From the NCBI GenBank assembly GCA_046563655.1, contig CM102287.1, positions 2,542,001-2,606,000 of the forward strand: DNA of 64,000 nucleotides, written 5' to 3'. This stretch comes from Yuukianura sp. NJ FZ-2021 (taxonomy: Eukaryota). Below the pieces are notes generated by a model that was not told the origin of the DNA, did not search any database, and worked only from the letters and a program-made list of their open reading frames with translations. The position numbers and the translations under genes are program-made. Below are positions 1,085 to 47,338 of the stretch, one piece after another; position 1 is the stretch's first letter; every line of letters starts with the position of its first letter.

Positions 1085-1543
1085 ATGGCCTTATGTCAGG
1101 AGCAGTTGCTGATCGTGATGGTGGTGATCGTGGCTCTGATTGGTGGGCCTGCAGAGGGTGTTGGTGACACAAAGCCACCGAAAAGCAACATTCCGCCGAA
1201 CTTTCTGCTGGAAAATCGAGCATTCAGTGGTAAAAGAGACTTTTCTGTGGCGAAGATCTGCCAAGCGAACCCAGACTGTTGGTGGGAATTTCAAATGAAA
1301 GAAATGCCCTCATCCCCGTCACCAAGGCCCACCCCCATGCCAATGGAAACTGTACGACAAGGATACTTGGACGGTCTGAAAATGTGCTGCCGCACTCCGG
1401 AAATGCATAAGCAATGTTTCAACGACACAAAGCCAACAAATGGAAACGATGACGCACTACTGGACCACTGCGGAGGAGCAGCCACAAACCTTCCACTCAA
1501 ATTCATCTTTCCAACGTTACTCCTCGCATTCCTCAATTTTTAA
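1085..1543 (+). CDS. Secreted, putative GPI-anchored 6-Cys protein, family member 1 (in-frame ATG also at 1076)
   Basis: Signal peptide, C-x5-C...CC-x8-C-x17-C scaffold, small-residue omega region (CGGAA) and hydrophobic C-terminus. The 44-nt 5' leader is identical to that of the 16782 gene. Confidence 0.8.
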   Translation: MALCQEQLLIVMVVIVALIGGPAEGVGDTKPPKSNIPPNFLLENRAFSGKRDFSVAKICQANPDCWWEFQMKEMPSSPSPRPTPMPMETVRQGYLDGLKMCCRTPEMHKQCFNDTKPTNGNDDALLDHCGGAATNLPLKFIFPTLLLAFLNF

Positions 1544-1678
1544 AATATACTTCATTTCGTTACAAATTTTCAAAACACACTTCATTCACTGAAACGTTTG
1601 TTGTAAAAGTTTTTCTAAATTTCGAAAGTAAAATAAACTCTAAGCTCAACCTTGAAATTCTGTAAATTTGGAGACCAT

Positions 1679-2203
1679 TTATTGCTGCGTTGTGCAAGGA
1701 ATTACAGAAGGAATGAAGAGAAAGGCAAGAATTGCGAAGTGTTTGGATTTTGGGTGAGTTGACCTTTGACCTGACGTGCCCACGTAGACGCCATAGCCAT
1801 CATAAGCTCCTGGCCCACCAAGCCCACGTCTAGTCGAACTGTCCTCGGTTGTTGTTGGTGGGACGATGACGGTGGGATCCAGCACTTTCACACAGTACTG
1901 CTCCAGCTCAGCTTCATTTTGGTAGAGCATGGAGTTGAGTTCAACACACATGTGTTTTACTCCCAAGTAGCAGCATTTGTTATACGTTTTGCTGATGGCC
2001 AACGCCCAATCTTCACCTTCATCCCCGTGCTCTGGATGTTCTGGTGGCAAACACGTTTGGTTGATCCTAATTCCGTAACAAATTTCTGCTTTTCCAGTCT
2101 TTGGAGTTGTCTTTGGAGGTTGGTGGTCACAACAGATTCCTGACACTGCGCAGACAATTGCAAGCGATGTCCACAACTGCAAAGCATTTCGCTTCCACGT
2201 CAT
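1679..2203 (-). CDS. Secreted, putative GPI-anchored Cys-scaffold protein, family member 2
   Basis: Signal peptide, C-x8-C...KCC-x7-C...ELEQYC, Thr-rich stalk, RRGLGG motif and hydrophobic tail. Confidence 0.8.
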   Translation of the reverse strand: MTWKRNALQLWTSLAIVCAVSGICCDHQPPKTTPKTGKAEICYGIRINQTCLPPEHPEHGDEGEDWALAISKTYNKCCYLGVKHMCVELNSMLYQNEAELEQYCVKVLDPTVIVPPTTTEDSSTRRGLGGPGAYDGYGVYVGTSGQRSTHPKSKHFAILAFLFIPSVIPCTTQQ

Positions 2204-2468
2204 TCTTCAAGCGATTCTTCTACCGATTTTTAAGTTCCAGCAGCAACGCTGTGTCTCGGTTCACAATTTTCTCAAATTCCTCCCAAATTACTCAAATTTT
2301 AATATAATTGCTGGAAATTCTCCAGAAATTCGACAAAAAAAATTTTTTTTTTCCAGAAAATTGATCCAGCGAATTTCAAAGTTTCAAAAAAAATTTCTAA
2401 CCGAAAACTTACTCTTCTGTTTCTAGTAGCTGCAGTAAGGAAATTTTCTAAATTTTTCATTCTTTTTT

Positions 2469-2490
2469 GTGTGTGTGTGTGTGTGTGTGT
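2469..2490. repeat. (GT)11 microsatellite
   Basis: Read directly from the sequence. Confidence 0.95.
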
Positions 2491-2573
2491 TTTTGAAAAA
2501 TCGATGAATTTGGAGTTTTTTTCTTCAAATTTTGTACTTTTAAAAAACGATTTATTTTTGACTTGAACAGAAA

Positions 2574-3209
2574 CTACAAGTGAAAAACCAAAAGGACAAT
2601 AATCGTTGTAAATTTTTGTGGAAAGTCAGGTGACCTTTGACCTTTGGATCTACTGTGACTGTGACCTTTGAACTCTGCATAGCCTTCGTACTTCCCGCGT
2701 CCACCGAAGCCACCTCCTCTTCTTTTGGCTAGTTTTGTCGTAGTCGTTTTTGGCGTTGTCGTTTTTGTTGTTGTGCGTTTTGGTCCATCACGTTCATTAC
2801 AGAATGCTTGGTAGTATCCAGGATCGAGGTAGAAGCGCAAGGAGTCGAAACGATCACAACTCGCGTCAGATTTCCGATCTCTGCAGCATTTGTCCATCAT
2901 GTGAGTGAGGATGCTGGACCAGTTGTAACTGGATGCTTCCAGTATTTGTACTGCGTCAATTTGATCAATGTAGGCAATCAAACAGTCTTCCTTTCGAGGA
3001 GGGTAGAGTAGATTGACGCAAATGGCCATCATAGCATTGCTCACTTCACCTTTGACCTCCAGTCCTGGCGGTGCAAACGTGAAGTTGGTCAAAACCTTGT
3101 CCCAAAGTTCCGTCAAGTTCACATTGTCAGGTTGAGCAGTAACGATTCCAGCGATTGCGAAAACCAGCATCAGCGATGGCCAGAACTGCACAATTTTTGG
3201 TTCCGACAT
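2574..3209 (-). CDS. Secreted, putative GPI-anchored 6-Cys protein, family member 3
   Basis: Signal peptide, C...C...KCC-x8-C...AFCN, TTKTT mucin-like stalk, KRRGGG motif and hydrophobic tail. Confidence 0.8.
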   Translation of the reverse strand: MSEPKIVQFWPSLMLVFAIAGIVTAQPDNVNLTELWDKVLTNFTFAPPGLEVKGEVSNAMMAICVNLLYPPRKEDCLIAYIDQIDAVQILEASSYNWSSILTHMMDKCCRDRKSDASCDRFDSLRFYLDPGYYQAFCNERDGPKRTTTKTTTPKTTTTKLAKRRGGGFGGRGKYEGYAEFKGHSHSRSKGQRSPDFPQKFTTIIVLLVFHL

Positions 3210-5281
3210 GAGAAAATCAACGATTCTTAAAACTCCAGCCGAGGCTCAGTGAATTTTACAAGTTTTTTGTAACAGGAATTTAGAATTTTGAAAAATTAGT
3301 TCAAAAATTGAACTGTAGGAGAACTTTTAATAGAAAGTTTTGAAAAATTTCGAGTCATGAGATTTTGGAGGTTTTTTTTTAAAGCTTGTTTGTTACAGAA
3401 TTTAACATTTTTCGTGCGTCAGAGCTCCAGAGTTGCAATTTATTTAAAAAAAGTCAGAAATTTTGATTTTTGCAAGGATTTTCTTAGAAAAGTTACAATT
3501 TTTATTTCTTTTGAATAGTAACACAATTTTTTTTTTAAGTTAAGTTTTTTGAAAAGAAAAACTTTCTCACACTCACCAGCTTCTTTAACATAAAAAAAAA
3601 TGAAATTAGACTTTCAGAAAGTTTCACTTTTTCTTGCCTTTCTTTAGAAAGCGACAAGATTCTATGAATAGAAAAATTAGAAATGGCAAAATATTTGCAC
3701 GAGCCGATTTCTCTTACCCCGCCCCCGCCCCACTTTGACAATTTCTGTACTTTTGATACAAAGTCCCACCCGAGTGTGGGTAAAGCCCCACCCGAGTGTG
3801 GGTGGGGCCTTGGCATAAATGAGAAAAGGATTTCCGAACCATTTCCTTTGTTTCAAAGCACTTGGCGTAAACGCTCTGACAGCCCAAATCTCTCTCTTAT
3901 GATTTGTAGCTGGACTTTCTCCACGGCAAAAGAAAATTTCAAAAGAAATTCTCGCTTTTTTTAACGTCTTTGTATCATTCTTGTATCATAAAATTTTGAG
4001 ATAGAAAGCACGAGCGGAAGTGACAACGGTTTGCCAGCGATTAGATTTTGGCACAGTTTTCACGCTTCGCTGAAATTTACAATAAATCCTCATTTTTGGC
4101 TTTTCAAGGCGCTGATTTAATTTTAACTTAAAAAAAGCTTGACTTGAATTAATTGAAGCTTGAAATTTTTAAAAGATTTTCTAAAAAAAACGCTACAAAA
4201 GGAAATAGTGAAGTTTAGCTTGCACGGTGCAATTCACGGTTTCAGCTTCTTTCGAGGGAAAGACTCAAAAAAGTGCTTAAAATTAAGTTACACCCGCCGC
4301 AATTTAATATGCAAGTTTCCACTTTCACTGTTTTTGAAAAAGTGAAAGTCCCAAGAGACGAAACCCTGCTTTTCAAGTTTGTTTTTTTTTTGAAAAGGAG
4401 AAATCTGGTAGAAAATGTTCGTCAATTCATTAGGCTCCTTTTCTTGTGCAGAGGGAATTTTGAAATGAAATGCAGAGGGGAGGAGTAGAAAGCGTTTAAG
4501 ATGCAATATTCAAACGGAGGGAAATTTAAAAAGAGAAAGCAAAGCGGTTGGTTTTCTTTGATGAAAAGATTCAAAAAAGCCTCCTCAAAAATGTTTTCCG
4601 AGTTCCTTTAATTAAAAATTCTTGTAAACCGGGGTTTCTTTTTCCAGTTCAACTCAAACTCTGTTCTTTTAGTTGAATTTTGAAAATTTTAATTTTTTTG
4701 AAAACGGGAACATGAATTTTTAGTTTTTCTCTTTTTCAAACTTAACTAAATGTTAATGTTAATAGTTGGGACGCCAGCGAAAAATAATCTCATTTTTTTT
4801 AGCTATATAAATTTAAAATACCAGCAAAGAATCATGCAAAATTTTAGAAGACGTTGATACATTGCATTGAAGAAAAACATTTCGTTGTTTTTTATGAATT
4901 TGCATTTCGTAAACTTTTGCTTTAGAGGTCAAGCTAGGGTCGAAATCTACTAGAAAGTGACCTTGACCATTTCATTGCAACATTTCTTTCACAAAATACA
5001 CTTCTTATAATGTCTTGACGACACTGGCGACACTTTTAGTAAAATCAGCTTCTTGTTTTCACACATTCGCCAACTTTTCAGCATGTTGCGCTCTCTTCAC
5101 TATGCGTTTGCGCTTTAGCCCTCCTCGGTTGGTTTGCTGAAACTTGTGCCAATTTCAGCGAAAGCTTGTTCTCTTCCAGGTAAAACCAAAGTTTTAGAAA
5201 GAAACTTGAAACTTAAAAAAGTTGGTTAATTTTGAATTTGTTTCAAGTTCAAGATCTTTGTTGCTTGTGCGTCTGCTTGAA

Positions 5282-5968
5282 ATGGCTTTGTCGGGATCAG
5301 TTGCTGGTTGTGGGCATTGGATGCTTGCAGTTTTGGTTGTGGTTGGTGGAATTTGGATTGGTGGGGCTGTTGGAGCCACCACGAACACCACACTCGGTGG
5401 AGACGCAGGTCCTCGCTACCTCAACTCCACGATCTCTCTCTTTCAAAATAGAGCAAATCGTCGTAGAAGTTTTTATGATGAAAGTGAAAGTCCTTACGGT
5501 GAAAGTGGAAGTTCTTTCGGTGGAGGCGGAAGTTCCCACGGTGGGAGTGGCGGCGTAACTCTACGCAGCATTGCCTGTCCCCGTGCGACCTCTGACCCCG
5601 GCTGCATCGCTGACCTTACCTTGATTACAATGCAAAAGGACGCATACGAACGGGGAGAAACGTTTGATCATCCCTCCAACTTTCGTTACGGTATTGTGGA
5701 CTTCCTCAAAGAGTGTTGCAGTAAACCTCCTGGACCGTTCCAAAAATGCACCTCAATTGACAATCCAATGACCAAGGGCGATGATCTCTCCGTGGACACT
5801 TTCTGCAATAGTCGACACTCTTCAAACTACCGAAGTCCATTCGACTATCATTATCCTAAAGGAACCTACAAAGGACTACCAGTGCCGGAAGACCTATTGT
5901 CCCACGGCAGTCCACTTAAATCTACATTCACTCTACTTTCTCTCATTACTTTTTCACTTCTTATTTAA
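5282..5968 (+). CDS. Secreted, putative GPI-anchored 6-Cys protein, family member 4
   Basis: MALSG signal peptide, RRRS basic site, Gly/Ser linker, C-x8-C...GIVDFLKECC-x9-C...TFCN and hydrophobic tail. Confidence 0.85.
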   Translation: MALSGSVAGCGHWMLAVLVVVGGIWIGGAVGATTNTTLGGDAGPRYLNSTISLFQNRANRRRSFYDESESPYGESGSSFGGGGSSHGGSGGVTLRSIACPRATSDPGCIADLTLITMQKDAYERGETFDHPSNFRYGIVDFLKECCSKPPGPFQKCTSIDNPMTKGDDLSVDTFCNSRHSSNYRSPFDYHYPKGTYKGLPVPEDLLSHGSPLKSTFTLLSLITFSLLI

Positions 5969-6556
5969 ACAAAATATTCAAACTTGACATGAATTTTTAC
6001 AATAATTAATAAAATTTTCTGTTCACTGAAACTTTTTTTTTAAACTGAGAAACATGACATTTTAAAATATCAACGACTGGGGAAAGAGCGGAGTGCAAGT
6101 AAAAGTTACATTTTTTCGAAATGCATTTTGAAAAACATTTTAGTTTCTCTAGCCATGAATTTGAACTTTTCACCTTAAAGTTTTGCATTAGAGATCAACT
6201 TTGGGTGAGAATGTACTAAAAAGTGAGGTCAACGACCTTTGATCATGTTTCTTGTCACTTTCACTCAGAAAATTACACTTTTAACAATGTCTTGACGACA
6301 CTGGGGACACTTTTAGTAAAATCAACATCTTGTTTTCACACATTCACCAACTTTTCAGCATTTTGCTCTCTCTTCGCTACGAATGAATTTGCGCTTTAGC
6401 ACTCGGAGTTGCTAAAAACTTGTGCCAATTTCAGCGAAAGCTTGTTATCTTCCAGGTAAAACCAAACTTTTGGTTAGAAACTGAAAATTTTAAAAGTTGT
6501 CTAATTTCTAATTTGTTTCACGGTCAAGATCCTTGTTGCTTGTGCGTCTGCTTAAA

Positions 6557-7240
6557 ATGGCTTTGTCAGGAACAGTTGTTTGTCGTTGGCAATGGACGCT
6601 GGCACTTTTGGTTGTGATTGGTGGAGTTTGGATTGGTACAGTTGCACAATCTACGGAGTCTTCTAAAGCCAAAACTCAAAATTTGGCTAAAACTAAGCGG
6701 TTTGACATTGCCGCCATTTCTCGCATGATGAAAACTTCCCGTCGTAAGTTCAGGAACCGAGCTGCTGGACCAAACAGAAACATTCTGGAAGCGGCTTGTG
6801 ATGTGCACAAGTCAGATCCACATTGCCTTGTAGAATACTTTCTGATGACTCAACAAGTTTATGGAAAAGAAACGACCGTGGATGAAAATGACTACTTTCA
6901 AAGTGTGGATTTGATCTTTGACCTTTGCTGTACCCCGCCGCTTGGAGAAAACGAAGACTGCAGAAACCAGGGGTTGTCCACTTTGGCAACAGCAACAGAC
7001 GGAGGTGAAATCGACGACTTCTGCCTAACCCGAAAGCAGCCAAACTACCAAAACCCATTCAAAACACCTTACCAGCCCATTTCTGACTCTGGCCCATCCA
7101 ATGATCCGTCAAAAGACGGGTACGATGACTGGGCTGGCGGAGACACAAGATACAGCCGACGTAATCCAAATGCAACTAAAATGAACATCGGACTCAAGTT
7201 TCTTGTTCTTACTACTTTCTCTTTTCTACTGCTTTTTTAA
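6557..7240 (+). CDS. Secreted, putative GPI-anchored 6-Cys protein, family member 5
   Basis: MALSG signal, C-x8-C (SDPHC)...CC-x9-C...DFC and GLKFLVLT tail; tandem paralog of 5282. Confidence 0.85.
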   Translation: MALSGTVVCRWQWTLALLVVIGGVWIGTVAQSTESSKAKTQNLAKTKRFDIAAISRMMKTSRRKFRNRAAGPNRNILEAACDVHKSDPHCLVEYFLMTQQVYGKETTVDENDYFQSVDLIFDLCCTPPLGENEDCRNQGLSTLATATDGGEIDDFCLTRKQPNYQNPFKTPYQPISDSGPSNDPSKDGYDDWAGGDTRYSRRNPNATKMNIGLKFLVLTTFSFLLLF

Positions 7241-8097
7241 AAAGCAGTAGCTTTTTCAAATTCAAAGAATTTCAAAGTCAAAAAATTTCATATTCTAACA
7301 TTTTCAAACACACTTTTCACTAATTACATTCTCTAATTCTAAACTTTCAAAATTGTCTTACCAATAGTACTCAAAATCAATAAATTCACCAATAATAAAA
7401 TAATAAAATTTTCAAATCAATTTCAAAAAAATAAAATTAAAATAAATAAATTCAACTTGTCACTTTATACTTTTGCATTAGAGGTCAACCCTGGGTCATT
7501 TCTTTACAACATTTAATGCAAAATTCACTTTTTACAATGTCTTGACAACACTGGCAACGCTTTTAGTAAAAAATCAACATCTTGTTTTCACTCATTCACC
7601 AACTTTTTAGCATTTTTCTTTCTCTTCTTGCTACGCGTTTGCGGTTTTTAGCACTCGAAGTTTGCTACAAACTTGAGCCAATTTCAACGAAAGCTTGTTT
7701 TCGCCTTAAAATTTTGCATTATTTTACATCAACTTTGGGTCAAAATGTACTAAAAAGTGAGGTGAACGACCTTAATCATTTTCCGTGTAGCTATTCTGCT
7801 AGAAATACACATTTGAAAATTGTCTTGACGACACTGGCGACACTTTGAGTAAAATCAACATCTTGTTTTCACACACTCACCAACTTTTGACCTTGGTTGT
7901 TCAGTCGCAGTCAGTCAGTAGCTGGAGGTTGAGCCGACAGGAGTAGAAACTGAAGCTCTGCGTCAAGTTCATCAGAAACAGACTTTTCGTCATCTCAAGT
8001 AAGACTAAATTTCAGTTTAGTTAAAGTTAATTGAACTTTAAAGTGACTCTGGTCTGTTTTAGGTGGAAGATCTTTGTTGCTTGTGCGCCTGCTTGAA

Positions 8098-8652
8098 ATG
8101 GCTTTGTCAGGAACAGTCACTGGTGGTCGCTGGATGACTTTGGGTGTGGTGATGGTCATGTGTGGATTTGGACATCTTGAGTCACGAGAATTGGAAAATC
8201 ATCGAGATGTGCTGTGCGATGCTTTCGCCAAAAAGCCGGACTGCTACTTCGATTACGTGGATAAGACTAATGCTGCCAAGGGTGGTGAACCACAGGACAG
8301 GGACTACATGGGAAAACTGTTGGAGAAATGCTGTGGTGGCCTTGGAATTAGTGGATGCCGCCCGATCGACGACGCTGCGAATATCCAAGGCAGTTGGCCA
8401 GAGCTGGATGCGTGCAGATTCGATCCCACCACGACGACGGAGCCACCAAAAAAGGACGAGTCAAAACCGGACGATGAAACACGTCCGCACAGCTACAGCG
8501 GTAGTGAACCAGCGGTGGACTCAAATTTCTTGTTCTTACTATTTTTCTTCCACTCCTTTTCTAAAAATCTCCAAACATTTACATTCAAAATACTCAAAAC
8601 TTTCATAATCTCTTTCATAATTTTAAATACATACACACCAAAAGTCTGTTGA
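8098..8652 (+). CDS. 6-Cys family member 6; C-terminal tail appears frameshifted relative to paralogs
   Basis: MALSG signal and C-x8-C...CC-x7-C...C scaffold. The family tail GLKFLVLTIFLPLLF* is encoded at 8517-8564 in a different frame. Confidence 0.7.
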   Translation: MALSGTVTGGRWMTLGVVMVMCGFGHLESRELENHRDVLCDAFAKKPDCYFDYVDKTNAAKGGEPQDRDYMGKLLEKCCGGLGISGCRPIDDAANIQGSWPELDACRFDPTTTTEPPKKDESKPDDETRPHSYSGSEPAVDSNFLFLLFFFHSFSKNLQTFTFKILKTFIISFIILNTYTPKVC

Positions 8653-11600: not shown

Positions 11601-13516
11601 TCGGAACTGGTCAACTGTGAGATGGAGTTAGGCTAACACTAACCTTAGTAGAATCTAATGGCAAGTCATCAATAAGGAATATCCTACAGCATATGGCGAC
11701 ACATAAAAATGACACTTCATTTCTCCCGTGCTGAAACGCTGGACAAGTGACCACACCAAAAGTGAAAAACGAGAAAGCACTGACCGAAAACGGCCCTCTT
11801 TTTAACAAAGTGCCTTTGACTTTCCTTTTCGTGCTAAACAAACCATAGCCTAACTAACACAATGTTAATTTTTTTAAAAATCTACTCAAAACCTTGAGTT
11901 CTTTTTGTTTACTTATCGAAAGTGCTGAAAGTTTACTTTTGGAACAGGAAGTGTTTAGCTCTCCAGAAAAACAAGCTTTCTTCACTTTAACTTTTTTCTA
12001 AAACTAAAAATTTTCATTTTCAGGAAAAAGTGAAATTCCAGCAGTTTCTTCTCTCCTCTCTTTCAAAATTCCAGAGTTGCTTTTTTCCTCATCTCCTATG
12101 CATATTTCCTCTTTCCTTAAAAATTCATGTTTTCGTGTGCAAACATTGGGAAGTTGCGTTTGGGAAATTGCATATTTGAGAATCCTAGCCCTGCGTATTT
12201 TTAGGTTGTTAACCTTACATGAGATGATGACTTGGTCTAACGTGAGTTGATGGTTAGGCTAACATTAGGTTAGCCTAACGTAACCTGGAGGAAGCAATTA
12301 ATTAAAGGAGGAAGGGGGAAGAGGTAAGCCAAGAGGCCTTTGATCCAGAGTGCATGGAGTGATCAATTTTTTAAAGACTTTCCCCGGGGGAAAGTGAAAC
12401 ACAAACAAGAACGGAATGCCCAGCAGTCATCCACTCCCCTCCACGTTCACAATTTCACTAATGGGCAGCAGCATCTCAAGATTCCGTGGTCGTTCCCTAG
12501 CAACGCAGTCTGACCATCCTAAACCTAACGTTAGCCTGACCTTAACCTAACCTTAGCCTAATGGAAAGCATGTCCGGACATTCTTACCTTCAAGAGCCTG
12601 TTGGTCTCCTGGGTCACTTTTCCAAAAACCCGCCAAATTGAGAACGAAACCGAAAAATAGTAAGGAATTTCTCTTTTTTGGGTTTTTTACTTTCACCTTC
12701 TAGAAACATACTAAAGTTAAGACAGATCCCATATTCGAAAAACTTTTTCGTTTTTGGATTTTGAAAGTCAAAAAATTGGAGAATGTAGAAGTTGGAATTC
12801 GGCTGGATCCGAGACTTTGTGATTTTGGGAGTGAAAGTTTGTTCCTCTTGTGCGTAACTTTCTTTTTTGTTTGGAAACACGAAGAGAGAGGAGTATAGTA
12901 GCGTAATGGGTGTCCCCAGGGCCTAAGTTGAATTCCATGTCGGAGGAAGTCATTCCATTCCACAATCCACAATCCATAGCAGATCCACAATCCACAGTCC
13001 ATTCCTTATTTAACAACAGTCAATATCCTCCCCTCATCCACTTTCTCCTTAACCAGCATCTTACACTCTCATCTCAATTCTAAATGGAATGGGACTCCCT
13101 AATAGTCAGAACAGGACGAGGGGCTACCTAATTCTCAGAACAGGCTGATTCAACAGACAACCCGAAATTTCGAACAGGGTTCCGCTTTCACCAAAACTGA
13201 ATTACATTTTTCAATTTAATGAAAATTTGAGAACTTAAACTCAGCAGGAAAAATGTTTTACTTCAATTTCTCCCGGGACAGACACGGTTGAAATTTTGCA
13301 AGTTATAAGTAATTCATGAAGTATTTCGTAATTACTGTGATTGTAATTACTTGATGAAGGACGCCTTTGAATTTTGCAGTTTCCAAAACTTTGCTGCCAA
13401 GAAAATGCAAATCTTTTGTCTATTTAGCAGCAGCTTAACCTATAAAGCTTGCATTTTGACTTTTAATTAGTGTAATTAGAAGTAGTTCGTCAAGTATTTC
13501 GTAATTATCAGTGTAA

Positions 13517-14320
13517 TTACTTGAACAAGAAAACAATTAGCAGAATGTAGAGCACGTGACCTTGAATTACTGGACTTCCGTTTCTGCATGTCTCTGTCTT
13601 GCCCTGGTAAAGCCACACGAGATCATCCATTTTGTCGATACTTTCACATCCGCTCAAATTCCTGTCGCGACAGCATCTCTCGAATTCTCTGACGAGCGGC
13701 TCTTTCAAATTTTGATTCTGCTTTTGGTTTTTCAAGATGCGTCCAAGTACTTTCGTAAAACAGGTTTTGTCCTGTGCCAATCTCAAGCACATTGCATCTC
13801 TGACGGACGGCGGAATTTTGACGATGAATGTTTCCGTCGTTTGTTCCGTTCCTCGGAGATGTTCCGATGTCGTCCGATTTTCAAAGGATTTTTCCGAAGT
13901 CAGATTTTCAAATGCTGGCGGTTGAAAAGTTGTGCCTTTTTGGGGTGGCGGTGTTGGAGTTGTGTGTTTTTGAGGTGGCGGTGCTCGCTGAACTGGGTCT
14001 GGGTTCGGGATGACCCAGCCTATTCCGGCACCCCGATTTTCCAAATTTGCTTTGGCTGCTTCTCTAGAGACATAGTAAATCGGTTTTCCTTGTGCTCGTC
14101 TCAGGGCTTTCAAGTTTTCTTGGGCTGCTCGCAGGGCCGTAACGTTTTCGGAGGATCGTTGCATCGTACGCAGCATTTTAGCAAATACGCGAAGCGCTTC
14201 TGGCGGTGGTTTGACGGTTGCTTTTGGCGGTTTTCGTGTTGGACGTCGAATTGCCAAAGATTCACTCATTAAAAGAAAAACGAAGAGAATCCAAAGACGA
14301 ACGGCGTTTGGTCCGGACAT
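13517..14320 (-). CDS. Secreted, putative GPI-anchored 6-Cys protein with a long basic, Pro/Thr-rich N-region, family member 7
   Basis: Signal peptide, C-x8-C...RCC-x7-C...TC, then NGS omega-like site and hydrophobic tail. Confidence 0.8.
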   Translation of the reverse strand: MSGPNAVRLWILFVFLLMSESLAIRRPTRKPPKATVKPPPEALRVFAKMLRTMQRSSENVTALRAAQENLKALRRAQGKPIYYVSREAAKANLENRGAGIGWVIPNPDPVQRAPPPQKHTTPTPPPQKGTTFQPPAFENLTSEKSFENRTTSEHLRGTEQTTETFIVKIPPSVRDAMCLRLAQDKTCFTKVLGRILKNQKQNQNLKEPLVREFERCCRDRNLSGCESIDKMDDLVWLYQGKTETCRNGSPVIQGHVLYILLIVFLFK

Positions 14321-16781: not shown

Positions 16782-17306
16782 ATGGCCTTGTCAGGAGGGG
16801 TTGCTGGTGGTCGTTGGATGGTGGCGTTGGTTTTGGTGGGTCTGGCCGGTGGGATCTTGGTTGGTGGGGCCGAGCCACCAATTCCAAGGAAGATGACAGG
16901 CTTAGAGATGTTTGCTATGGCCCTTCTGAACAACGCTTCTTTGATTCCTCCGAAGTTGGAACCTCGTAGTGTGAGTAGTTCGAAGGAAGATGTGCGTACA
17001 GCGGTGTGCCGAATGTACGGAACTGATCCGAAGAGTGTCATGAAAAAGCTGATCCTGGCCATACCTGAGCTCCAAGTGTTGGGAGAGGCGTACGTTGACA
17101 GGAACACTCAGAAGTGCTGTGCTAAACTGGGAGTCGCAGGGTGTGAACAGGTCGACAGAACTGCTAGCAAACAATACGATGGCTCCTTGGATCACCGCAA
17201 AACGGAAGGAAAGAGCGACAAATCCCCTCAAACCAAAATTAAAACAACGCTCAGCCTTCAGCTCAAATTTCTTGTTCTTACTGGTTTCTTAAAACTCCTC
17301 GTCTAA
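16782..17306 (+). CDS. Family member 8, 4-Cys variant with C2 and C6 lost
   Basis: MALSG signal, shared 5' leader, C...(S)...KCC-x7-C...LDH(R) and LKFLVLT tail. Confidence 0.75.
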   Translation: MALSGGVAGGRWMVALVLVGLAGGILVGGAEPPIPRKMTGLEMFAMALLNNASLIPPKLEPRSVSSSKEDVRTAVCRMYGTDPKSVMKKLILAIPELQVLGEAYVDRNTQKCCAKLGVAGCEQVDRTASKQYDGSLDHRKTEGKSDKSPQTKIKTTLSLQLKFLVLTGFLKLLV

Positions 17307-31156: not shown

Positions 31157-31696
31157 TTAGAAAAACTTGATTGCTGCTGCTGCAAGAAGAGCAGCGATTC
31201 CATTTTGTAGGACAGCGGTGACCTTTGCGTTAGTGTTGTCTCTTCCACCAAAAACAGCAGCCAAGGTCACGACCCAACCGACATTCAATGTCGCCGCTCC
31301 AGATCCAGGAGGAGCACGGTCCATCTTGACCCCCTTCTCTATGATCTCCTTGATCCTTTCATCCGTGCACTTCGTCAAGACGGTGTTTTGTCCAGTCCAC
31401 TTTTTCCCCTTCTCGCAACATTCCTTGATCAGATCTTCAGCAGTCGGCCAAATTTTGCCCAAATACACTTGTCTGCTGTGGAAGGTGAAACCACTGTCCG
31501 GACCTGCTTTCATCTCGGCATTCGTTTTTGCGTAGTCCTCCGGATCTGAGCAACCACTGTTCGCATATCCGAAAGCAATCCTTTCCACGGTGCCTCCACT
31601 GTACTTTGGCCCTGCTCTTTCCGTTTGGCCACTACAGCTGGAAAAGCAGACGACGGCAACAAAACCACTGATCAGCTTCATTCTGCCCACAATCAT
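31157..31696 (-). CDS. Secreted membrane-tethered 4-Cys protein, family subtype B, member 9
   Basis: Start MIVGRMK, signal peptide, GCSDP...IKECC...KCTDERIKE and two C-terminal hydrophobic segments. Confidence 0.8.
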   Translation of the reverse strand: MIVGRMKLISGFVAVVCFSSCSGQTERAGPKYSGGTVERIAFGYANSGCSDPEDYAKTNAEMKAGPDSGFTFHSRQVYLGKIWPTAEDLIKECCEKGKKWTGQNTVLTKCTDERIKEIIEKGVKMDRAPPGSGAATLNVGWVVTLAAVFGGRDNTNAKVTAVLQNGIAALLAAAAIKFF

Positions 31697-32696: not shown

Positions 32697-33260
32697 TTAG
32701 AAGAAGTTGATTGCTGCTGCTCCAAGGAGACCAGCGATTACAGCGATTCCATTTTGTAGGACAGCGGTGACCTTTGCGTTAGTGTTGTCTCTTCCCCCAA
32801 AAACGGTCGCCAAGGTCACGACCCAGGCGACATTCAATGTCGCCACTAAAGACCCAGCACCGCTTCGGTCCATCTTGACCCCCTTCTCCACAATTTCCTT
32901 GATCCTTTTATCCGTACACTTCCACAAGCTGTTAGTGTTCTCACCCTTTATCCATTTAAAGTCCTTGTCACAACATTCCTTGATCAGATCATCAGCAGTC
33001 GGCATAATTTTCCCCAAATAGTCTGCTCTTGTGAATCTCCCCTTTTCAAAAACACTGTCCGGAGCTGCTTTGAGGGCCTGCCAGCCAGATTCGTGCTCTT
33101 TCGGATTTAGGCAACCAGTATTCCCGGCACCCAAAGCCTCCCTTTCAATGGTGCCTGAAGCGTACTTTGGCAATTCCCTTCCCTTGGTTTGACCTCTGGT
33201 GCTCCCGATGCAGACGACGGCAACAACAGCCACGATCACCTTCATTCTTCCAACAATCAT
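32697..33260 (-). CDS. Tandem paralog of the 31157 gene, member 10
   Basis: Same start motif, IKECC...KCTDKRIKE and a near-identical C-terminus; flanking DNA is also duplicated. Confidence 0.8.
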   Translation of the reverse strand: MIVGRMKVIVAVVAVVCIGSTRGQTKGRELPKYASGTIEREALGAGNTGCLNPKEHESGWQALKAAPDSVFEKGRFTRADYLGKIMPTADDLIKECCDKDFKWIKGENTNSLWKCTDKRIKEIVEKGVKMDRSGAGSLVATLNVAWVVTLATVFGGRDNTNAKVTAVLQNGIAVIAGLLGAAAINFF

Positions 33261-33493
33261 CACAACACGCACCACGAACAGAACGGAGAGTAACCGACAA
33301 GCCGATCTAGAGACAGAGGAACTTTAGTAGACAACGACATAAACGAAATTTAGACATTTGCATTAGCTGTGTTGTTTAGTTACCAAAGTTAATGACGATT
33401 AGTGCCTGACCTCTTGACCTCCTCCACAAACGTAAATTACACAAGAGAAGCTTTTGAAAAAGACCACTTTCTTCCGTGTCCAAACTGCAAGTG

Positions 33494-36810: not shown

Positions 36811-36875
36811 AGAAATTCAGAAATTTCAGAAATTTCAGAAATTTCAGAAATTTCAGAAATTTCAGAAATTCAGAA
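36811..36875. repeat. 9-bp tandem repeat (aatttcaga)n just upstream of the Toll ATG
   Basis: About 7 units read directly from the sequence. Confidence 0.85.
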
Positions 36876-36923
36876 AAATGTTGGTGTCGTTGGAAAATCT
36901 AAATTGAACATAACAGTTCAATC

Positions 36924-39900
36924 ATGGGCCCTAAAATGTCAACTTTACTTTTGATCTTGGTGACCTTGGTGACCTGGGACAGAGGTCAAACAGAGGTCAA
37001 GGCCAATCTGGACATTGAAGGTTGTCACCTACAGTCATCAGGTCATCATCAACATCATCTTCAAAGTGATTCAGCAGTTGACACTTCAAAAACAGAAAGT
37101 GACTACGCAGACTCCGTTTTATGTCAAATCAGAACTTTACAGAGTGACCTTGACTTTGACAACTTGACTCTTCACTTGGCCGTCCCCATGGAGAAGGTCA
37201 CAACTCTCAAGGTCATGTGCAATGACCTTTTGTTCTTCGAATCAGTGCTGAGTCCAGGTCAACTCAGTGGATTCTCCGAGGTCATTGACCTGTCAATTGA
37301 GCAGTGCAAACTCAAGGTCATCACGGCAGACGCTTTTCTTGGTCTGGACAATTTGAAACACCTAAAAATCAATACTGGCAACTCAGACTGGGCTGCCAGG
37401 TCACTCGAACTGTCCAGTTCAGCTTTTGAAACTGTGAAATCTCTCCAGAGTCTCCATCTAGGCTACAATCACATGTGGGCCCTTCCACAAAAACTTCTGT
37501 GTCCCTTAGAGGCCCTTAAAGTCCTCAACTTGACCCACAATCTATTAAGTGACATTGATGACCTTGGCCTCTCCGGCTCAAATCCACCGCAATCCAGGAA
37601 AAGTACTCCAGGAATTTTCAGAAGTTCGGCTGGAAGCGACATTTTAGCGGCGACATTTCAGCCGACGTGTCTCTCTGAGCTCAAAAAGCTGGACATTTCG
37701 CACAACAGTCTGCGCCGACTCGGATCTCGTCGGTTTGAGAACCTAAAGCGCCTGGAAGATCTGCGTCTCCATGACAACTGGCTGGAGGAAGTCCATGACC
37801 TCACGCTTTTCGGTCTCTCAGGACTCAAATCGCTGAATTTGTCGTCCAATCGCTTAATCGCTCTTCCTTCTACGCTGTTCCAGCATTCCCCGCAACTTAG
37901 AAACCTTGATTTAAGAAATAACTCACTTTCTTCACTTTCTCCCGCGCTTTTCGCGCGTCTTGAGTTTTTAGTCGTTTTGGATCTCAGTAGAAATAGTTTA
38001 TCTAGCCAGTGGATGACAGTAGAAAGTTTCCGAGGATTAGTGCGATTAGTGATTCTCAATTTAAGTCACAATCAACTAACGCACTTGACCCCTGCGACAT
38101 TCAGTGACCTCTACACTTTGCAAGTGCTTGACCTTAGTAATAACTTGATTTCGTCAATTGCCGACTCCACTTTTACGCCAATGAGTAACCTCCATGAGCT
38201 CAATTTGGCCAGAAATAAGCTCGTTTCAATTGAAAGCAAGATGTTCAATGGGCTATACGTTCTGCACAAACTCAGCTTGGATTATAATCAGATCACGCGA
38301 ATTGATTTAGAAGCGATGAAAAATTGCACAAGCTTGAGTGACCTCGGATTGGTCGGAAATTTATTAACGGAAGTTCCCGAAGCTCTCCGAGGACTCCAGT
38401 ACTTGAAAACGCTTGATTTAGGTAACAAATCCTAAGTTTTAAAGAAATTCTGAATTTTGAAGAAAGTTCTGAATTTTTCTTAAGAAAGTTCTGAATTCGT
38501 CTTTTTTGTATTTTTTTTCTGAAGAAAATTCTCAATTTGTCCTCTTTTTTTTGTCTTTTTTTTTAGGAGAAAACCGAATTTCTAGAGTTTCTAACGACTC
38601 TTTCTCTGGGATGAGTCAACTGCACTCTGTTCGTTTGGTGGAGAATGACCTTGAGGAGATTCCTTCTGGACTGTGTGACCCCGTGAGTGACCTCCGTGTG
38701 TTGAATGTTGGTCAGAACAAAATCAAGAGAGTTGGGTCAAAAGCATTCGTGTCATGTCCAGAACTGAGAGTACTTCGACTGGACTCCAATGCCCTGGACA
38801 GTCTCCCGTCCAACTTGGTTCCACAGTTACCAAACCTCATCTGGCTCAATGTCTCTCAAAATCAGATTCAAACTGCACACTACTCAGCACTTCCGCCATC
38901 ACTCGAGTGGTTCGGTAAGAAAATTCAAAAAAGTAGGACTATTTTAACAAAAAAAAAATTCTGAAAAAAAAATTCTGAATTTCTTTTAAATATTAGTTCA
39001 CTTTCTGCTTTCACGAGAAGAGAAAACAAAACAAATGAAAATGACAATTTTTTTTCAGATGTGAGTCACAATCGATTGGTGGCTCTCGGTGGAGCTTCGG
39101 GTTCTGGAAGTGGAGCCACCATGGGAAAAAGTGGACTTTCTCCTGGTCATGTCCACCGCTCTAGTCATCATAATGCTAAACTCCGTTTCGTAGATGCTTC
39201 ACATAACCTTTTGACCCAACTTGACCTCAATTCAGTTCCAGCATCACTCGAAAAACTTGTGGTCAGTCATAATCGTTTGACCAAAATTCTGCCAGACACT
39301 TTTAGTCGCTCGACTCATTTGCATCGTGTGGATTTGATTGGAAATCAGCTGGAAACTATTCCATTAGCAGCACTCAGGTTCCACCAAATTCCTATGTCCA
39401 AACCACTTCCTCAATTTTCTCTAGGTAATCAAAATTTTTAAATTTTTTGAATTTTTTAAACATTTTCGAGCCAATTTCAATCTTCCATCGCGTAAAGCTG
39501 TATTAATCCAAATTCATCCGAAAACGAAAGTCTAAGAGAAAGATTTCTGCAAATATTCTCAGGAATTCCGAATTCGGTCAATATTCTCAGGAATTCTGAA
39601 GAATTCTGTGAAAATTTTTTGAAAAAGTGATTTTTTTTTGAAATTGTAGGTGGAAATCCGTTTTTGTGTGACTGTGACATGGAGTACTTGATGCGCATAA
39701 CACAACTGAGTGCAACACGTCAGTATCCAGTCGTCCTTGACCTGGATGCCATCGTCTGTCGTCTCACCTACTCTCGATCTGTGTCACACATTCCTCTTCC
39801 GGAAATGAAACCTCAAAACTTCTTATGTCCTTACACCTTCCACTGCTTCCAAACTTGCCAGTGCTGCGAATTTGACGCCTGCGGTAACTCAAATTTAAAA

Positions 39901-42900
39901 TTTCTCAACAAATTTTGAAGAAAAAGAAAATTTTGAAGAAAAATGTTGTCAAAAGAAAAGTCGTTCAGAAAAACTTGAGTTCTATCAATAGCTCTAAAAT
40001 TCATTTGAAAGTTCACTACTGCACACAGTGTCGTGAGATCCACTCAAAGTGGAAATTTTTTGTCGAATTTTTTTGTTGTATTCGATCCTAAACTGCTAGT
40101 AATGGACCAAATTGACCATAAAAAATGACCTGGACCGAAATTTTTCAAAAAAAACGAAAAATCCGAAATTCGGAGTTTTCATTTATCCGGAGCTATTTCT
40201 CGGAGTTTCTCAACCAGAAGCAATAGTTCACTGCAAAAAACGCTTAAGTTTTGAATTTCAGCCCATTCGGTTGCAAAATGGCGGAGTTATAGCGAATTAT
40301 CCGAATTTCGGGGTCAACTTTGCGAGGGTCTCCCGGGTGTTCCAAAGGGATATTCGAAGTATGCAAGGTGGCGTTGGAAAGGCATTCCCTTGGGCTACAA
40401 ATTATACCTTAACACTTTTTCGAATATACCTTTGGAAATTGAGATATGTCGCCCGGAATGAAAGCGACAATTCATGGGGGGATAAACATAGCTTATAGAA
40501 TACCGTAAAAAAATTAATGCCGAAATAGTGCAACCGATGTAGTCAATTAATGCTTACGTATTGATTGACACTAGTATTATGTATTCTGAAATAATCTGAG
40601 TTCAATCTGAACCAAGTTGATTTGTAGAATCAATTATAAATTTGTAGCTTAATGCTAATGGACCAAAGTTCCCCCCATGAATTGTCGCTTTCATTCCGGG
40701 CGACATATCTCAATTTCCAAAGGTATATTCGAAAAAGTGTTAAGGGATAATTTGTAGCCCAAGGGAATGCCTTTCCAACGCCACCTTGCATACTTCGAAT
40801 ATCCCTTTGGAACACCCGGGAGACCCTCGCAAAGTTGACCCCGAAATTCGGATAATTCGCTATAACTCCGCCATTTTGCAACCGATTGGGCTGAAATTCA
40901 AAACTTAAGCGTTTTTTGCAGTGAACTATTGCTTCTAGTTGAGAAACTCCGAGAAATAGCTCCGGATTTAAGAAAACTCCGAATTTCGGATTTTTCGGTT
41001 TTTTTTGCGAAATTTCGGTCCAAATTATTTTTTATGGCCAATTTGGTCCATTACTAGCAGTTTAAGATCGAATACAACAAAAAAATTCGACAAAAAATTT
41101 CATTTCCACTTTGAGTGGATCTCACGACACTGTGCTGCAGCCGAAATGACATTTTGATTTTGATTTCTAGACTGCTCCATGACGTGTCCCACCAACTGCA
41201 CTTGTTACCATGGTGACTCCTGGACAGCCAATGTCGTGGACTGCGCAAATTCAAACTTAACTTCCGTCCCACCGCGCATTCCAATGGACTCCACCGCTGT
41301 TAACTTAGATGGCAATTTTATCCCGGTTTTAAAAAGTCACAGTTTCATTGGTCGAAAAACTTTGAGAAGTTTATATCTCAACTCCTCCAGAATCGACTCC
41401 ATCAGCAACAAATCTTTCAATGGACTCCAGTCTCTCGAGTATCTCCATCTCCAGGGAAATCTTCTTCGCCATCTCCATGGATACGAATTTGAGCATCTCA
41501 ACAAATTAAAAGAACTTTATCTCCAGGATAACCTTATCCAGACTATCTCCAACTCTACTTTCTTATCTTTGAAAGAACTGGAAATTTTAAGACTCGATGG
41601 AAACCGAATTTCGGTTTTTACCGTTTGGCAGCTCAGTTTGAATCCATATTTGGTTGAAATCGGACTCGGAAGGAATCCATGGTCATGCGACTGTCACTAT
41701 TTCAATCAACTCCATGGCTGGGTCATTGACAACAAAAACAAGGTCATTGACCTCAGTGACATTCGGTGTGTCTGGAATGTGACAAATCAGGTTGGGCCAT
41801 ATTTGGTTCAGTACAATTCAACTTGCGAAGGGCCCTGGGCCCTTATTCAAGGGGAGCCCTTTGACCTTCAAGGGCTCCTGTCCCTTGGAGCACTTCTTCT
41901 GACGATTCTGGTGACCTTGACCTCTGCGATTTTAGTTTTCGTCTGTCGAGACAATTTAAGATTTTGGTTTCATAAAAAGTTTGGGCTTAGATTGTGTTCT
42001 GGACGAGATGATTTCAGTGAAAGTGAAAAGTGTTATGATGCTTACTTTCTCTACAGCCAAAAAGATGAAGAATTTGTGACAACAAGAGTCGTTGACGAGA
42101 TGGAAACGGTGGAAAACTTTCGGTTTTGTCTCCACTATCGTGATTTACTTTTTGAAAGTGGTGACCTCAAGGAGGTCATGACCTCGGCGCTGGACAGTTC
42201 TAAAAGTTTAGTCTTTTTCTTGTCAAGGAATTTGTTCCAGGGAGAGTGGACAAACGCAGAGTACCGTTCAGCGTTTCAAGCTCTGCTAAAAACCAGTGCT
42301 AAAAAGCTCCCCGAGGGGGTCAAGACTATGGTAATTGTGTATATTGAACCAATTCCAGAACATGAAATGATGCTGGACGTTTCGTCATGGCTAAAAAATG
42401 GCACTAACACTCTCGTTTTAAAGTGGGCAGACAAAAAATTCTGGTCAAAGTTCAAATTCGCACTGCCGGATCCGTCAGTAAGTCATTATCATTCGAACAT
42501 CACGACTTCTTCGGCAGCATCGAGTGACCGTGCCTCAAGTGGTCTCAAATTTTACACTCCTTCTGGTGGTGACCCCAACTTGACCTTTGACCCAGCTCAA
42601 AAGTACTGGCAGTACAATCACAAGTCGGACTTTGTGCAACCAGCATATAGTGAGGGGTACACTCAGAATGAAGATGACGAAAATGAAATGCCGCCGTTTC
42701 TGTTTCAGCCGAACTCCAAATCGCCAGTACCGCTCGGGAATTTTGCCAAACCGAGTTCCAGCGGAACCTCCGGGGGTTCAAGCTACTTGAATCTGGAGGG
42801 GGAACATGTTTACTCGACCTTGGACCCCCCAAGTCCCACCGCCAACATTCAAATGCCTGGTGGATACACTGGCCCCACCCAGCATCAGTACCACTGGCAG

Positions 42901-42996
42901 CCCCACCCCTCACCCAGAAGGGCCCCACCAAGGAGAAAGTCAACTAAAGAAGGCTCAGCTCCACCCGGTGGGACAGTTCAAACTTATTTGGTCTAA
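36924..42996 (+). CDS. Multiple-cysteine-cluster Toll-like receptor of the long-Toll class (Toll-2/6/7/8; closest in motifs to Toll-7/18w), ~1423 aa; exons 36924-38421, 38567-38914, 39059-39424, 39650-39883, 41171-42996
   Basis: Signal peptide, many LRRs, internal NPFLCDC...CQCCEFDACDCSMTCP cluster, PPRIPMD, second NPWSCDC cap, TM helix, TIR (YDAYFLYS, CLHYRD, FWSKFKFALP), EHVYSTLD and C-terminal TYLV. Splices are in frame. Confidence 0.93.
40024..41134. mobile_element. 1111-bp foldback, non-autonomous Transib-like element in Toll intron 4
   Basis: About 460-bp inverted arms (40024-~40482 and ~40670-41134), both starting CACAGTG. 5-bp TSD CTGCA at 40019-40023 and 41135-41139. Confidence 0.9.
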
Positions 42997-43756: not shown

Positions 43757-46256
43757 ATGGATAATTTTTTATATTTCTCTTTTTGCTTTTTTGTGGTATT
43801 TGTGATGATATGCGGGAGAATTTCAGCACAAGACGAAGGGAATCAAACAACAGCGATTCAAAATGGCGGCGGACCGACTGATATTCAAAATGATCCAAAA
43901 TCTGGAGATGTTTCAGCAAGTGCTAAGCAAAACACGCGGCATTTGAAGTTTACCGGTTAGATTCTAAAAAAACACTAATCAAAATGGGTCTAGTTTTTCA
44001 CTTTTCTAAAAAAAATTGAAATTTTCAAAATTTGGAAACCAGACGACTGGTCCTCAGAGTTCCCGAAATGCAGCCCGGGCAATACCTTTGGGTCACCGAT
44101 TGACCTTAACACGTCCAAGGTCATTCACGTTAAGAAGCATCTACGGACACTGATGCTCTACTCCTTTGAACCAATCAAAACTTACTTCTTGCAAACATGG
44201 TACAACGACACCGAGAACAACATTGTCATGAGTGCATGTAAGGTCAAAGGTCAAAGGTCAAATTCAAGTCAAAGGTCAAAGGTCAACCTTATTTTTGATT
44301 TCAGTGACCATAACCCTCCTGGACAGCATTTTCTTTGAAGCAACTTACATCAATGGCCTTGGATTCAACGAGTTTCAGCTTTTTCAGCGTGCAGTTTTTT
44401 TCATGTCCAAGAGTCCACTGGCTCCTGCGCAATCGCATCATCGCATCAACGGAACCCGATTTCCAATGGAACTCATGTTGACTTTCACAAATCGACTTCC
44501 AGACAACGGCACAATTCGAAACACAACTCAAATTTTCATTATGATCAAGGTTTGAAAAAGAAAAAACACATTTTTTTTTTCAAAAAAGTTCAAAATCCAA
44601 AATTTTGTTTAGATTCAAAAAGATGACAATCCAAACTACTTTCCTGTAATCGACGCAGCCAAGAAAATTTTGAAAATGAAATCGAAATCGGCACAACTCA
44701 AAAATTTAACAGAAACGCTTGCAGCTCTAACCAAAAACCTCACAAAATTGACTCAGCAGTACAGTCAAAGTGGTCGTGGAGGCTCAGTAGAAGTGGTAAG
44801 CAATTTTCAAAATTTCGGAAAAAACTAGTTTTTGGAATTTTTTTTTCAAAATTTCAGCTTGAGCCTGTAATTGGCACAGTGAAACTTGCATTGAAAAAGT
44901 TGTTGAAAAACGAACGCATGCGTACGGGACTGGAGTACATCACTGGCGTCACAAAGAAGGAACTTGAAATAGAAAATTATAAACCACAGCTTGTTAATCT
45001 GACCTCCGAATTTGAATCTTGGAAGACAAAATACGAAACTTTGACTTCAACAGTGAAATCGAATCCAAATGATTTGGAACTTCTGGATGACAAGGCAGAA
45101 AATGATGAGCAAATGAATTTGTACCAAAAGAGATTGACGAGTTTGCGTAAAGTGGTTGGCGCTGTTTCTCAAAAACTTCGCTTTTATGACTCAACTGTTC
45201 AAAAATCAATTGAAGAAGACCGTCAATTGAACAGCACAATTCAAAGCATCACGAGTCAAATTACGGGCGACGAAAAAGTGGAGTCGGGCTCTCAACTTTT
45301 GAATTTCTACCAAAAACAGTTCAAACTCTGGAAACAAATTAAGGAACTCCAGGTAAAATTTTGAAACACGATTTTGAAAACAAATGGTACAAAATTTTGA
45401 AAAACAATTTCGAAAAATTCTGAAAAATGACTACATTTTTCAAAAACTCGACGGTATGAATTTTTATGTTTTCAGAAAAAAGTAAACGAAACGTCAGCGG
45501 AACTGGACAAAACAAAAGACGCTAAAGGCTGGAAGCAGAAGCTGGACACTTTCCAGGTACTTTGGAAAAGTTGTGAAAATTTTGGTTTCTTAGAAATTTT
45601 GAAAAGTGAATTTTTTCAAAATTTTGAAATGAGGTGACATGGCTGTTTCCTGATGGCGGTGGAGTGTACTTCTACAACGGTTCGAGTCCACTTCCACCAT
45701 GTCACCGATTTCGCACGACAATTGTACTGGAACAACCAGTCGGAATTTCTCAAGCGCAGTACAATACGCTGGCAGCGATTTCAGCGTATGAAGGTTACGA
45801 ACAAGTAGCGGATCGCGTGGCTCCAAAATTGGCACAAAGAGGAAACAGACCAGTTTGGTTCAACTCTAAAACGATCCAGTGGATGAGAGACGACGGTGAG
45901 TGACCTTCAAGGGTCAAAGGTCATGAACAAAATTCAAAATTTTGAAATTTTGAATTCATTTTGGTTTTTTTTTTTCAGGAGTTCACATGAAATCAATCGT
46001 TCGGAAGAAGTGGAAAGATGAAATGCGGGAAGAGTGGTCAACGAGTGGAGCTGCTTGTGTTTCTGTTGACGGAAAGAGCAAAATTAACCGGAAAAAGCTA
46101 ATCATTTCCAACATTTTGCTTTTGACTGTTCTAATTATCACGGAATCACTCATTATTCAGTGGACTTTCCTCTGGAATTTTAGACGCACCACAGACACAT
46201 TACGCACGTTGTCACAATTAGCCGCTGAAGCACTTGACCAGTTGGCACAATCCTAG
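43757..46256 (+). CDS. Acatalytic alpha-carbonic-anhydrase-like type I membrane protein with coiled-coil insert, ~645 aa; exons 43757-43955, 44043-44237, 44305-44549, 44613-44795, 44858-45352, 45476-45556, 45634-45895, 45979-46256
   Basis: Signal peptide, WSSEFPKC...SPIDL, SHHRINGTRFPMEL, YFYNGSSPLPPC, GNRPV and a C-terminal TM. Joins keep frame; the acceptor at 45633 is weak. Confidence 0.75.
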
Positions 46257-46305
46257 TTGACACAATTGCAGTTGATACAATTGCAGTTGACACAATTCAG
46301 TTGAC
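46255..46305. repeat. 15-bp tandem repeat (agttgacacaattgc), ~3.5 copies
   Basis: Read directly, immediately after the CA-like stop codon. Confidence 0.7.
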
Positions 46306-46789
46306 AAGATGGCGTGGCGTAGTCCTCACATTCTATCGTTCATTTTCTAAAAAGAAAACCTAAAAATTCCTCGATTTTGTGTAAAATTGTCTTCTTGTGA
46401 AAATTTTAAAAAAAATCAAAAATCGGGACCGATTTCTGTCGGAACTTTGAAAATCAGAAAATTTTTCTAGAATTTTTTCATAGAATTTCCGCTGTTTTCA
46501 TGGTACCATTTGGAAGGGTTAGGTAACTCTTGTTTGTTTCTTAGAGGTTGTCAAGTTTTCCTTGAAATTGCTTGTGGCGCAAAATATTGAAATGATTTTG
46601 AAGTTTGATCGCATCGCTGGAGAACCGAGAATTGTCAAATCATAGACTTTCTGGAACGTTCTGGAAGAAACGCAGTCACTTTTGGCCCAAATCCGGAGAA
46701 AATAGGTGAAAATCAAGAGAAAATCGGAGTAATCAGGAGAAAATCGGGGTAAATTCCTAAAAAATCGGATTTCCGTGAACTCCTTGACC

Positions 46790-47338
46790 ATGAAACGATT
46801 GTTCTGTGCCGTCTTCGTCGTTTCCGTGGTCACCGCAATGCTGGAGGCCAATGACACAACCACCGATGCCCCACCTAGAGAGAGCATCGTAGAACCGATG
46901 GTGGCTCTCGTGAATCCGAATGCCACCGAGAGGCCCTTGGTGGCTCCTCCACCAGAAACAGGAATGTACGTGATCTGGTCACTTGCAATGAAGGCCTGTG
47001 CCAATCCCCACCCTCGGGGGAGGTTCAGTGACCTCGCGAAGTTGAACGAGGTCAAAGGTCACCGCTTCCCCCACAAAGCATTTTGGCTGTTCATGGACGG
47101 AGTGAAGGGCGTGGTCAGAGAATGCTGCGATGGGAAGGGCTTGTACAAGTGCACGGAGGACGAACTGGAGGAACTCACGGCAGAATATGCTAAAATTGCA
47201 AATGCTGAACTGGAGAGAAGAATTGCAGAGAAAATGGCCAAGAAAACTTCAAATGCTGGCAGTACCAAGCACTTTCTTTCTGGAATTTTTGAAATTTTGG
47301 TCATTCCTCTCTATAAGCTGTTCAAAATCTTATTTTGA
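46790..47338 (+). CDS. Secreted, putative GPI-anchored 4-Cys protein, member 11
   Basis: Signal peptide, ACANP...GVVRECC-x7-CTEDEL, SNAG omega-like site and hydrophobic tail. Confidence 0.8.
   Translation: MKRLFCAVFVVSVVTAMLEANDTTTDAPPRESIVEPMVALVNPNATERPLVAPPPETGMYVIWSLAMKACANPHPRGRFSDLAKLNEVKGHRFPHKAFWLFMDGVKGVVRECCDGKGLYKCTEDELEELTAEYAKIANAELERRIAEKMAKKTSNAGSTKHFLSGIFEILVIPLYKLFKILF

Follow-up and report, generated by a model that had tools for sequence, protein, structure and literature searches.

A cluster of 11 small, divergent genes, built on one cysteine scaffold, was found in a window of 64,000 nucleotides of animal DNA (39% GC) from the springtail Yuukianura sp. NJ FZ-2021 (contig CM102287.1, positions 2,542,001 to 2,606,000). 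With a confidence about equal to our doubt, we read them as a lineage-restricted springtail family evolving by birth and death, whose products are variable surface proteins recognising outside partners at a microbe- or partner-facing surface.

The family and its members

The 11 open reading frames (ORFs) span positions 1085..47338 of the window, and each is open without a break and encodes a product that is hydrophobic at both its N- and C-terminus. All had been listed in a first-pass annotation of the DNA, and every one was found in place; the absence of coding introns, claimed there for the whole set, agrees with the open frames (a reading of DNA, not of RNA), and the signal peptides are borne out by a hydropathy peak of 2.2–3.8 within the first 40 residues of all 11 products. 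Members are named below by their first coordinate; GPI stands for glycosylphosphatidylinositol.

1085..1543, plus strand: 152 residues, six-cysteine core, short GPI-type tail, signal peptide with a compensated frameshift relative to paralogs
1679..2203, minus strand: 174 residues, six-cysteine core, Thr/Pro/Gly-rich stalk; a late frameshift probably lengthened the tail
2574..3209, minus strand: 211 residues, six-cysteine core, Thr/Lys-rich stalk, GPI-type tail; sister of 1679
5282..5968, plus strand: 228 residues, six-cysteine core; missing from one X3 read contig and at about one third of neighbour depth in X1
6557..7240, plus strand: 227 residues, acidic six-cysteine core, GPI-type tail
8098..8652, plus strand: 184 residues, six-cysteine core; the DNA still contains the family tail, in another frame
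13517..14320, minus strand: 267 residues, long basic Pro-rich N-terminal region; the six-cysteine core adjoins the tail directly
16782..17306, plus strand: 174 residues, four-cysteine core, Cys2 and Cys6 lost
31157..31696, minus strand: 179 residues from the paralog-matched start, four-cysteine core, two C-terminal hydrophobic stretches
32697..33260, minus strand: 187 residues, four-cysteine core; 64–66% identical to 31157
46790..47338, plus strand: 182 residues, four-cysteine core followed by a long helix, GPI-type tail

GC and GC3 (GC at third codon positions) of the member ORFs equal those of the Toll and dioxygenase exons of the same window, in contrast to the AT-rich flanks, and are thus coding-like. 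In 31157 the open frame extends upstream to an ATG at 31789; judged from 32697, translation more likely begins at 31696.

The cysteine core and common descent

Cys1, the cysteine doublet and Cys5 are invariant in all cores. Seven of the 11 members carry six core cysteines, with the pattern C-x5-11-C-x25-36-CC-x7-9-C-x17-20-C; four (16782, 31157, 32697 and 46790) carry four, without Cys2 and Cys6. The six-cysteine spacing noted at first pass thus stands in seven members, except that its first gap, given as 5–10 residues, is 11 in 2574; the four-cysteine variants, two of them with a longer gap between the doublet and the next cysteine, were correctly described (gaps of 15 and 17).

Chance is a poor explanation for such a set. 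The window contains 27 ORFs of 140–281 residues on both strands, and the 11 which feature the motif are the same 11 with both ends hydrophobic; 60 fourth-order Markov copies of the window average 1.02 ORFs of this size per copy, with 0.05 carrying the motif and none both hydrophobic ends, the thresholds having been fixed after the members had been seen. Homology was evaluated by building a profile without each member and its closest sister, and comparing the score of the real core with those of 300 shuffles in which the cysteines were kept fixed. The real core prevails in nine of the 11 members (0–5 of 300 shuffles reach its score) and 31157 is marginal (17 of 300), while the 1679 core is not recognised by its left-out profile (223 of 300); 1679 is tied into the family through 2574 (blastp E 1.6e-7). 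The leader and signal peptide of the four-cysteine member 16782 are, moreover, common to the six-cysteine members 1085, 5282, 6557 and 8098. The left-out profiles, along with the 1679–2574 match, support the view that the 11 ORFs form one family. No twelfth member was found by the profile in the window, the next segment scoring E 0.058 among 1587 segments.

Tails, frameshifts and a candidate processing site

A GPI-type layout is predicted, by hydropathy and a simple omega-site rule, for nine of the 11 members; a permissive form of the rule finds candidate sites in all 11, and hence has little power. A GPI tail had been assigned to the whole set: this fits nine members, while 8098 and probably 1679 have no clean GPI-type end. 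In 8098 the family-tail DNA matches the 6557 tail at 83% identity over 54 bases, but its reading frame differs from that of 6557 and 16782, and the ORF continues into what was the 3' untranslated region (UTR), so that the protein, as it stands, is probably not GPI-anchored. Since an X1 contig covers 8088–8794 without gap, this frame change is not obviously an assembly slip. Much as in 8098, the 1679 tail seems to run past the point where 2574 stops, although the alignment is weak, and was probably extended by a late frameshift. In the signal peptide of 1085, a two-base insertion and a five-base deletion offset each other and so keep the frame, a hint that selection acts to retain the product.

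At their C-termini, members 31157 and 32697 have two hydrophobic stretches joined by a short polar linker (31157–31290 and 32697–32850, minus strand), strongly kept between the two (nonsynonymous divergence, dN, of 0.10 after the core); the double end is possibly an old tail followed by a newer one.

A motif [LF]-[EQR]-x-R lies ahead of the core in six of the 11 members, in four of them 9–13 residues before Cys1, and may be a processing site; the pattern was picked after inspection of the members, and its per-member chance in shuffles is 0.03–0.34. Its presence would suit precursors of released peptides (signal, pheromone or defence), whose core would be released from the anchor after cleavage at the Arg motif, the membrane stage being transient, and the constant signal and variable mature part recall the layout of mussel CRP-I peptides (PMC10138031). 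However, the motif is absent from five members, no consistent cleavage site separates core from tail, and most cores are neutral or acidic (net charges range from -13 to +4) and so differ from cationic antimicrobial peptides; we hold this explanation to be improbable.

Upstream cassettes and copy turnover

Three members are preceded by related upstream cassettes:

4870..5281, plus strand: cassette of 5282, with promoter region, leader and putative 5' UTR intron (GT at -102, AG at -34)
6130..6556, plus strand: cassette of 6557, sharing 85% identity with the 5282 cassette over 400 bases
7448..8097, plus strand: cassette of 8098, accompanied by a further, partial copy around 7497–7702

Candidate splice signals of the short 5' UTR intron, predicted from DNA only, recur in 5282, 6557, 8098, 31157 and 32697. 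Divergence within member pairs is patchy. Between 5282 and 6557, synonymous divergence (dS) is 0.11 in the signal peptide, and the core is saturated at silent sites (proportion of silent differences, pS, 0.78); between 31157 and 32697, dS is 0.11 in the tail and 0.58 in the core, with a divergence of 0.14 in the 150 upstream bases. The earlier observation that leaders, signal peptides and tails are kept between several members is well founded. As the same patchiness is seen at silent sites, the simplest explanation is that the ends were homogenised by gene conversion or swapped by unequal crossover, and that the cores are old.

The family had also been called rapidly diversifying. Taken as positive selection, this is not supported by the sole measurable pair, 31157/32697, where dN/dS is 0.64 (95% interval 0.43–0.97; 179 codons), which indicates weak purifying selection; all other pairs are saturated at silent sites. 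Such a ratio is also consistent with relaxed constraint on structural or barrier coat proteins (of the gut lining, a cuticle-facing epithelium, or the egg or spermatophore surface), whose diversity would be a by-product of duplication. Ser/Thr/Pro-rich stalks, found in several members, two degenerate tails and a tolerated variation in presence or absence all point the same way; against this, the compact, disulfide-braced helical domain predicted for the core, with its wide range of charge, resembles a binding scaffold more than a coat, and no tandem low-complexity core is found. Coat proteins are a possible explanation, though a doubtful one.

Presence/absence variation emerges from read contigs, compared with the first 20 kb of the window, which include eight of the 11 members; three of the four runs derive from one sample. 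A 5.1-kb X3 contig links 1570–4746 to 6269–7416 with 265 letters in between, close to the 246 predicted by the register of the paralogous promoters, and represents a haplotype that lacks 5282, and the X1 contig over 5282 has a depth of 76, versus about 220 for five others listed. In some X1 and X2 contigs the start of one member gives way, after foreign letters, to the start of a different member, which points to additional copies or alleles. Similarly, a 5.5-kb X3 contig tracks positions 1–1075 of the window up to the 1085 leader and then departs, which suggests a second gene or allele behind this leader. In the region 11520–12560, many loose read ends accompany several short CCTAAC-rich elements, which are probably mobile repeats of small size.

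Predicted fold, known scaffolds and the search for relatives

The AlphaFold model of the 5282 core features five helices, with a predicted local distance difference test score (pLDDT) of 80 (77–80 in all five models). In the model of the 46790 core, the first three helices are placed around Cys1 and the doublet as in 5282; a common fold is only suggested, because this second model is weak and the alignment was common to both. In our reading the cores are helical domains of 80–90 residues, probably braced by two or three disulfides. From their joint loss, Cys2 and Cys6 are inferred to pair with each other, and Cys1–Cys4 and Cys3–Cys5 would pair by analogy with albumin-type doublets.

The repeat unit of serum albumin and alpha-fetoprotein (double loop; subdomain IIIA helices 1–4) is likewise helical, with a cysteine doublet at a helix end. 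Relative to the second cysteine of this doublet, one cysteine lies about 46 residues upstream and another, Cys 448 of albumin, about 10 downstream. Across the albumin family, the partners of the doublet stand about 44–46 residues ahead of it and 7–10 behind it; the 5282 core, with 46 residues between Cys1 and Cys4 and 9 between Cys4 and Cys5, has this albumin-like spacing, which is weak evidence by itself; the albumin spacing of Cys 392–438 is taken from papers. The structural match of core and albumin unit is weak, with matching ranges. Membrane-tethered, remote single-unit relatives of the albumin repeat, binding small hydrophobic ligands or proteins, are conceivable, yet unlikely. Pfam albumin is listed neither for full-length members (E up to 1) nor for cores (E up to 10), and members are single units of 152–267 residues, unlike the soluble, three-domain albumins. 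We grant the same low probability to the more specific proposal that free-standing, tethered copies of the double-loop unit serve as a hexapod recognition scaffold, with ectodomains swapped behind promoter-leader-signal cassettes.

Ly6/three-finger proteins are comparable in being small, with signal peptide and GPI tail, in tandem clusters, and with a cysteine scaffold holding variable loops. Their domain has 8–10 cysteines and a beta-sheet fold; the members, in contrast, have four or six core cysteines, all-helical models and no Pfam match to this class. In classic odorant-binding proteins the six cysteines include a C-x3-C step but no doublet; the members differ in their cysteine spacings and, again, have no Pfam match. 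Both distinctions had been proposed at first pass, and the cysteine pattern and helical model uphold them. Insulin/relaxin A-chains feature CC-x3-C-x8-C, not the CC-x7-9-C-x17-20-C of the members, although the inferred order of pairing would agree.

The CC (cysteine-knot) domain of RECK is also a small, all-helical, six-cysteine domain, with a doublet followed by a cysteine after 7–8 residues (PMC12842694, PMC11107207), and it tolerates sequence change within a GPI-anchored carrier protein (PMC7502776); among the mobile modules of extracellular proteins, disulfide domains built of helices alone are uncommon (PMC7502776). In the RECK motif, C2-X7-8-C-X3-C-X12-22-C-X9-12-C (PMC12842694), however, the doublet comes first and a C-x3-C step follows, while members have the doublet in mid-core and no such step. 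This motif does not accommodate the member spacings, the four-helix-bundle CC family is not among the matches listed in the structure comparison, and RECK is a single-copy multidomain gene. Mussel CRP-I genes are clustered paralogs with pseudogenes and presence/absence variation, of unresolved function, and combine a constant signal region with a highly variable, cysteine-framed mature one: the likeness is one of evolutionary behaviour, not of structure (PMC10138031). They encode short, cationic, secreted knottins and have coding introns, whereas members are larger and helical, with GPI-type tails and single-exon coding regions.

No relatives were found by a word-based search of 5.8 billion proteins, by a profile search of 1.84 billion representatives, where the sole match was a junk repeat, or in Pfam, NCBIfam, PDB sequences and the ESM Atlas. 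A 90-position profile of sequences so divergent is weak in huge libraries, so only close relatives are shown to be absent; within the protein, profile and structure libraries searched, the initial impression that no described family is recognisable is supported. The scaffold was not found described in open-access main texts, although the gene tables that accompany papers on springtail genomes may contain proteins of this sort. The kind, fast-turnover clusters of small GPI-type cysteine scaffolds, is already well known.

How the family may work

In the recognition reading, each protein would consist of a signal peptide, a variable N-terminal (pro-)region, a disulfide-braced helical domain, a variable stalk and a GPI-type tail; it would enter the endoplasmic reticulum, receive a GPI anchor, possibly be trimmed at the Arg motif and be displayed at the cell surface. 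The conserved 5' cassettes would serve as sites of unequal crossover and gene conversion, by which copies are added, removed and re-promoted; being shared, they would let the same cells display old, very different ectodomains. Through their variable helix surfaces the ectodomains would bind a variable set of external partners, most likely on epithelia or haemocytes exposed to microbes or to other individuals; the first-pass suggestion was that the role might be in gametes, sensing or immunity.

Several points weigh against recognition. The mature part of 31157/32697 has a dN/dS of 0.68 (0.39–1.21) and gives no indication of positive selection; the high upstream identity could reflect strong regulatory constraint on that DNA instead of conversion; the runs may represent one animal or several, so that alleles and paralogs are not separable; two of the 11 tails are degenerate (8098 and, probably, 1679); and the 46790 model has a pLDDT of only 66 and a predicted template modelling score (pTM) of 0.41.

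Neighbouring genes

A Toll-6/7-type receptor gene with several introns (36924–42996, plus strand) lies between members 32697 and 46790. Its C-terminal half has its best named hits, among the 120 matches listed, in Orchesella dallaii (55%), Allacma fusca (53%) and Orchesella cincta (53%); insects in the same list reach at most 45%, and three unnamed proteins 53–68%. From these matches the host is most likely a springtail remote from the annotated ones. The position of this gene, at about 36.9–43.0 kb, would suit a functional tie, members being co-receptors or ligands of Toll. This is very improbable: an NPC1 gene and a small coiled-coil gene are also found inside the cluster, Toll is conserved in other springtails (53–55%) where the family has no detectable counterpart, and no Spaetzle-type Pfam match was found. 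A Toll intron (40052–41101) contains an inverted repeat with arms 40147–40482 and 40670–41005, 98% complementary and 92% further outward, long and young, which looks like a foldback or MITE-type (miniature inverted-repeat transposable element) insertion.

The intron-bearing NPC1 (Niemann-Pick C1) gene (19965–24927, plus strand) features a 119-base internal duplication (24174–24292 / 24309–24424). Between Toll and 46790, a multi-exon gene (43757–46256, plus strand) has a signal-peptide-like start and a coiled-coil exon, with weak Snapin/SNARE-like Pfam scores, below cut-off. A single-exon, secreted-type intradiol ring-cleavage dioxygenase (Pfam Dioxygenase_C) is encoded at 49379–50299, minus strand; one relative was found, metagenomic, at 31% identity. 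Intradiol dioxygenase genes were horizontally acquired in mites and springtails. Four tandem gene copies (55177–62758, plus strand), about 65% identical in compared exons, have no significant Pfam match in the one exon scanned and are F-box/LRR (leucine-rich repeat)-like in appearance alone.

Significance

The family is one among many orphan surface families of invertebrate genomes. If the albumin likeness were real, it would bear on the origin of the albumin repeat, and the members would provide an invertebrate one-unit relative of it and a new natural binder scaffold. Clustered, small, GPI-anchored cysteine scaffolds, such as Ly6 and gamete and immune receptors, are where animals place fast-changing recognition; an immune or mate-recognition repertoire, if such it is, would open a handle on springtail biology.

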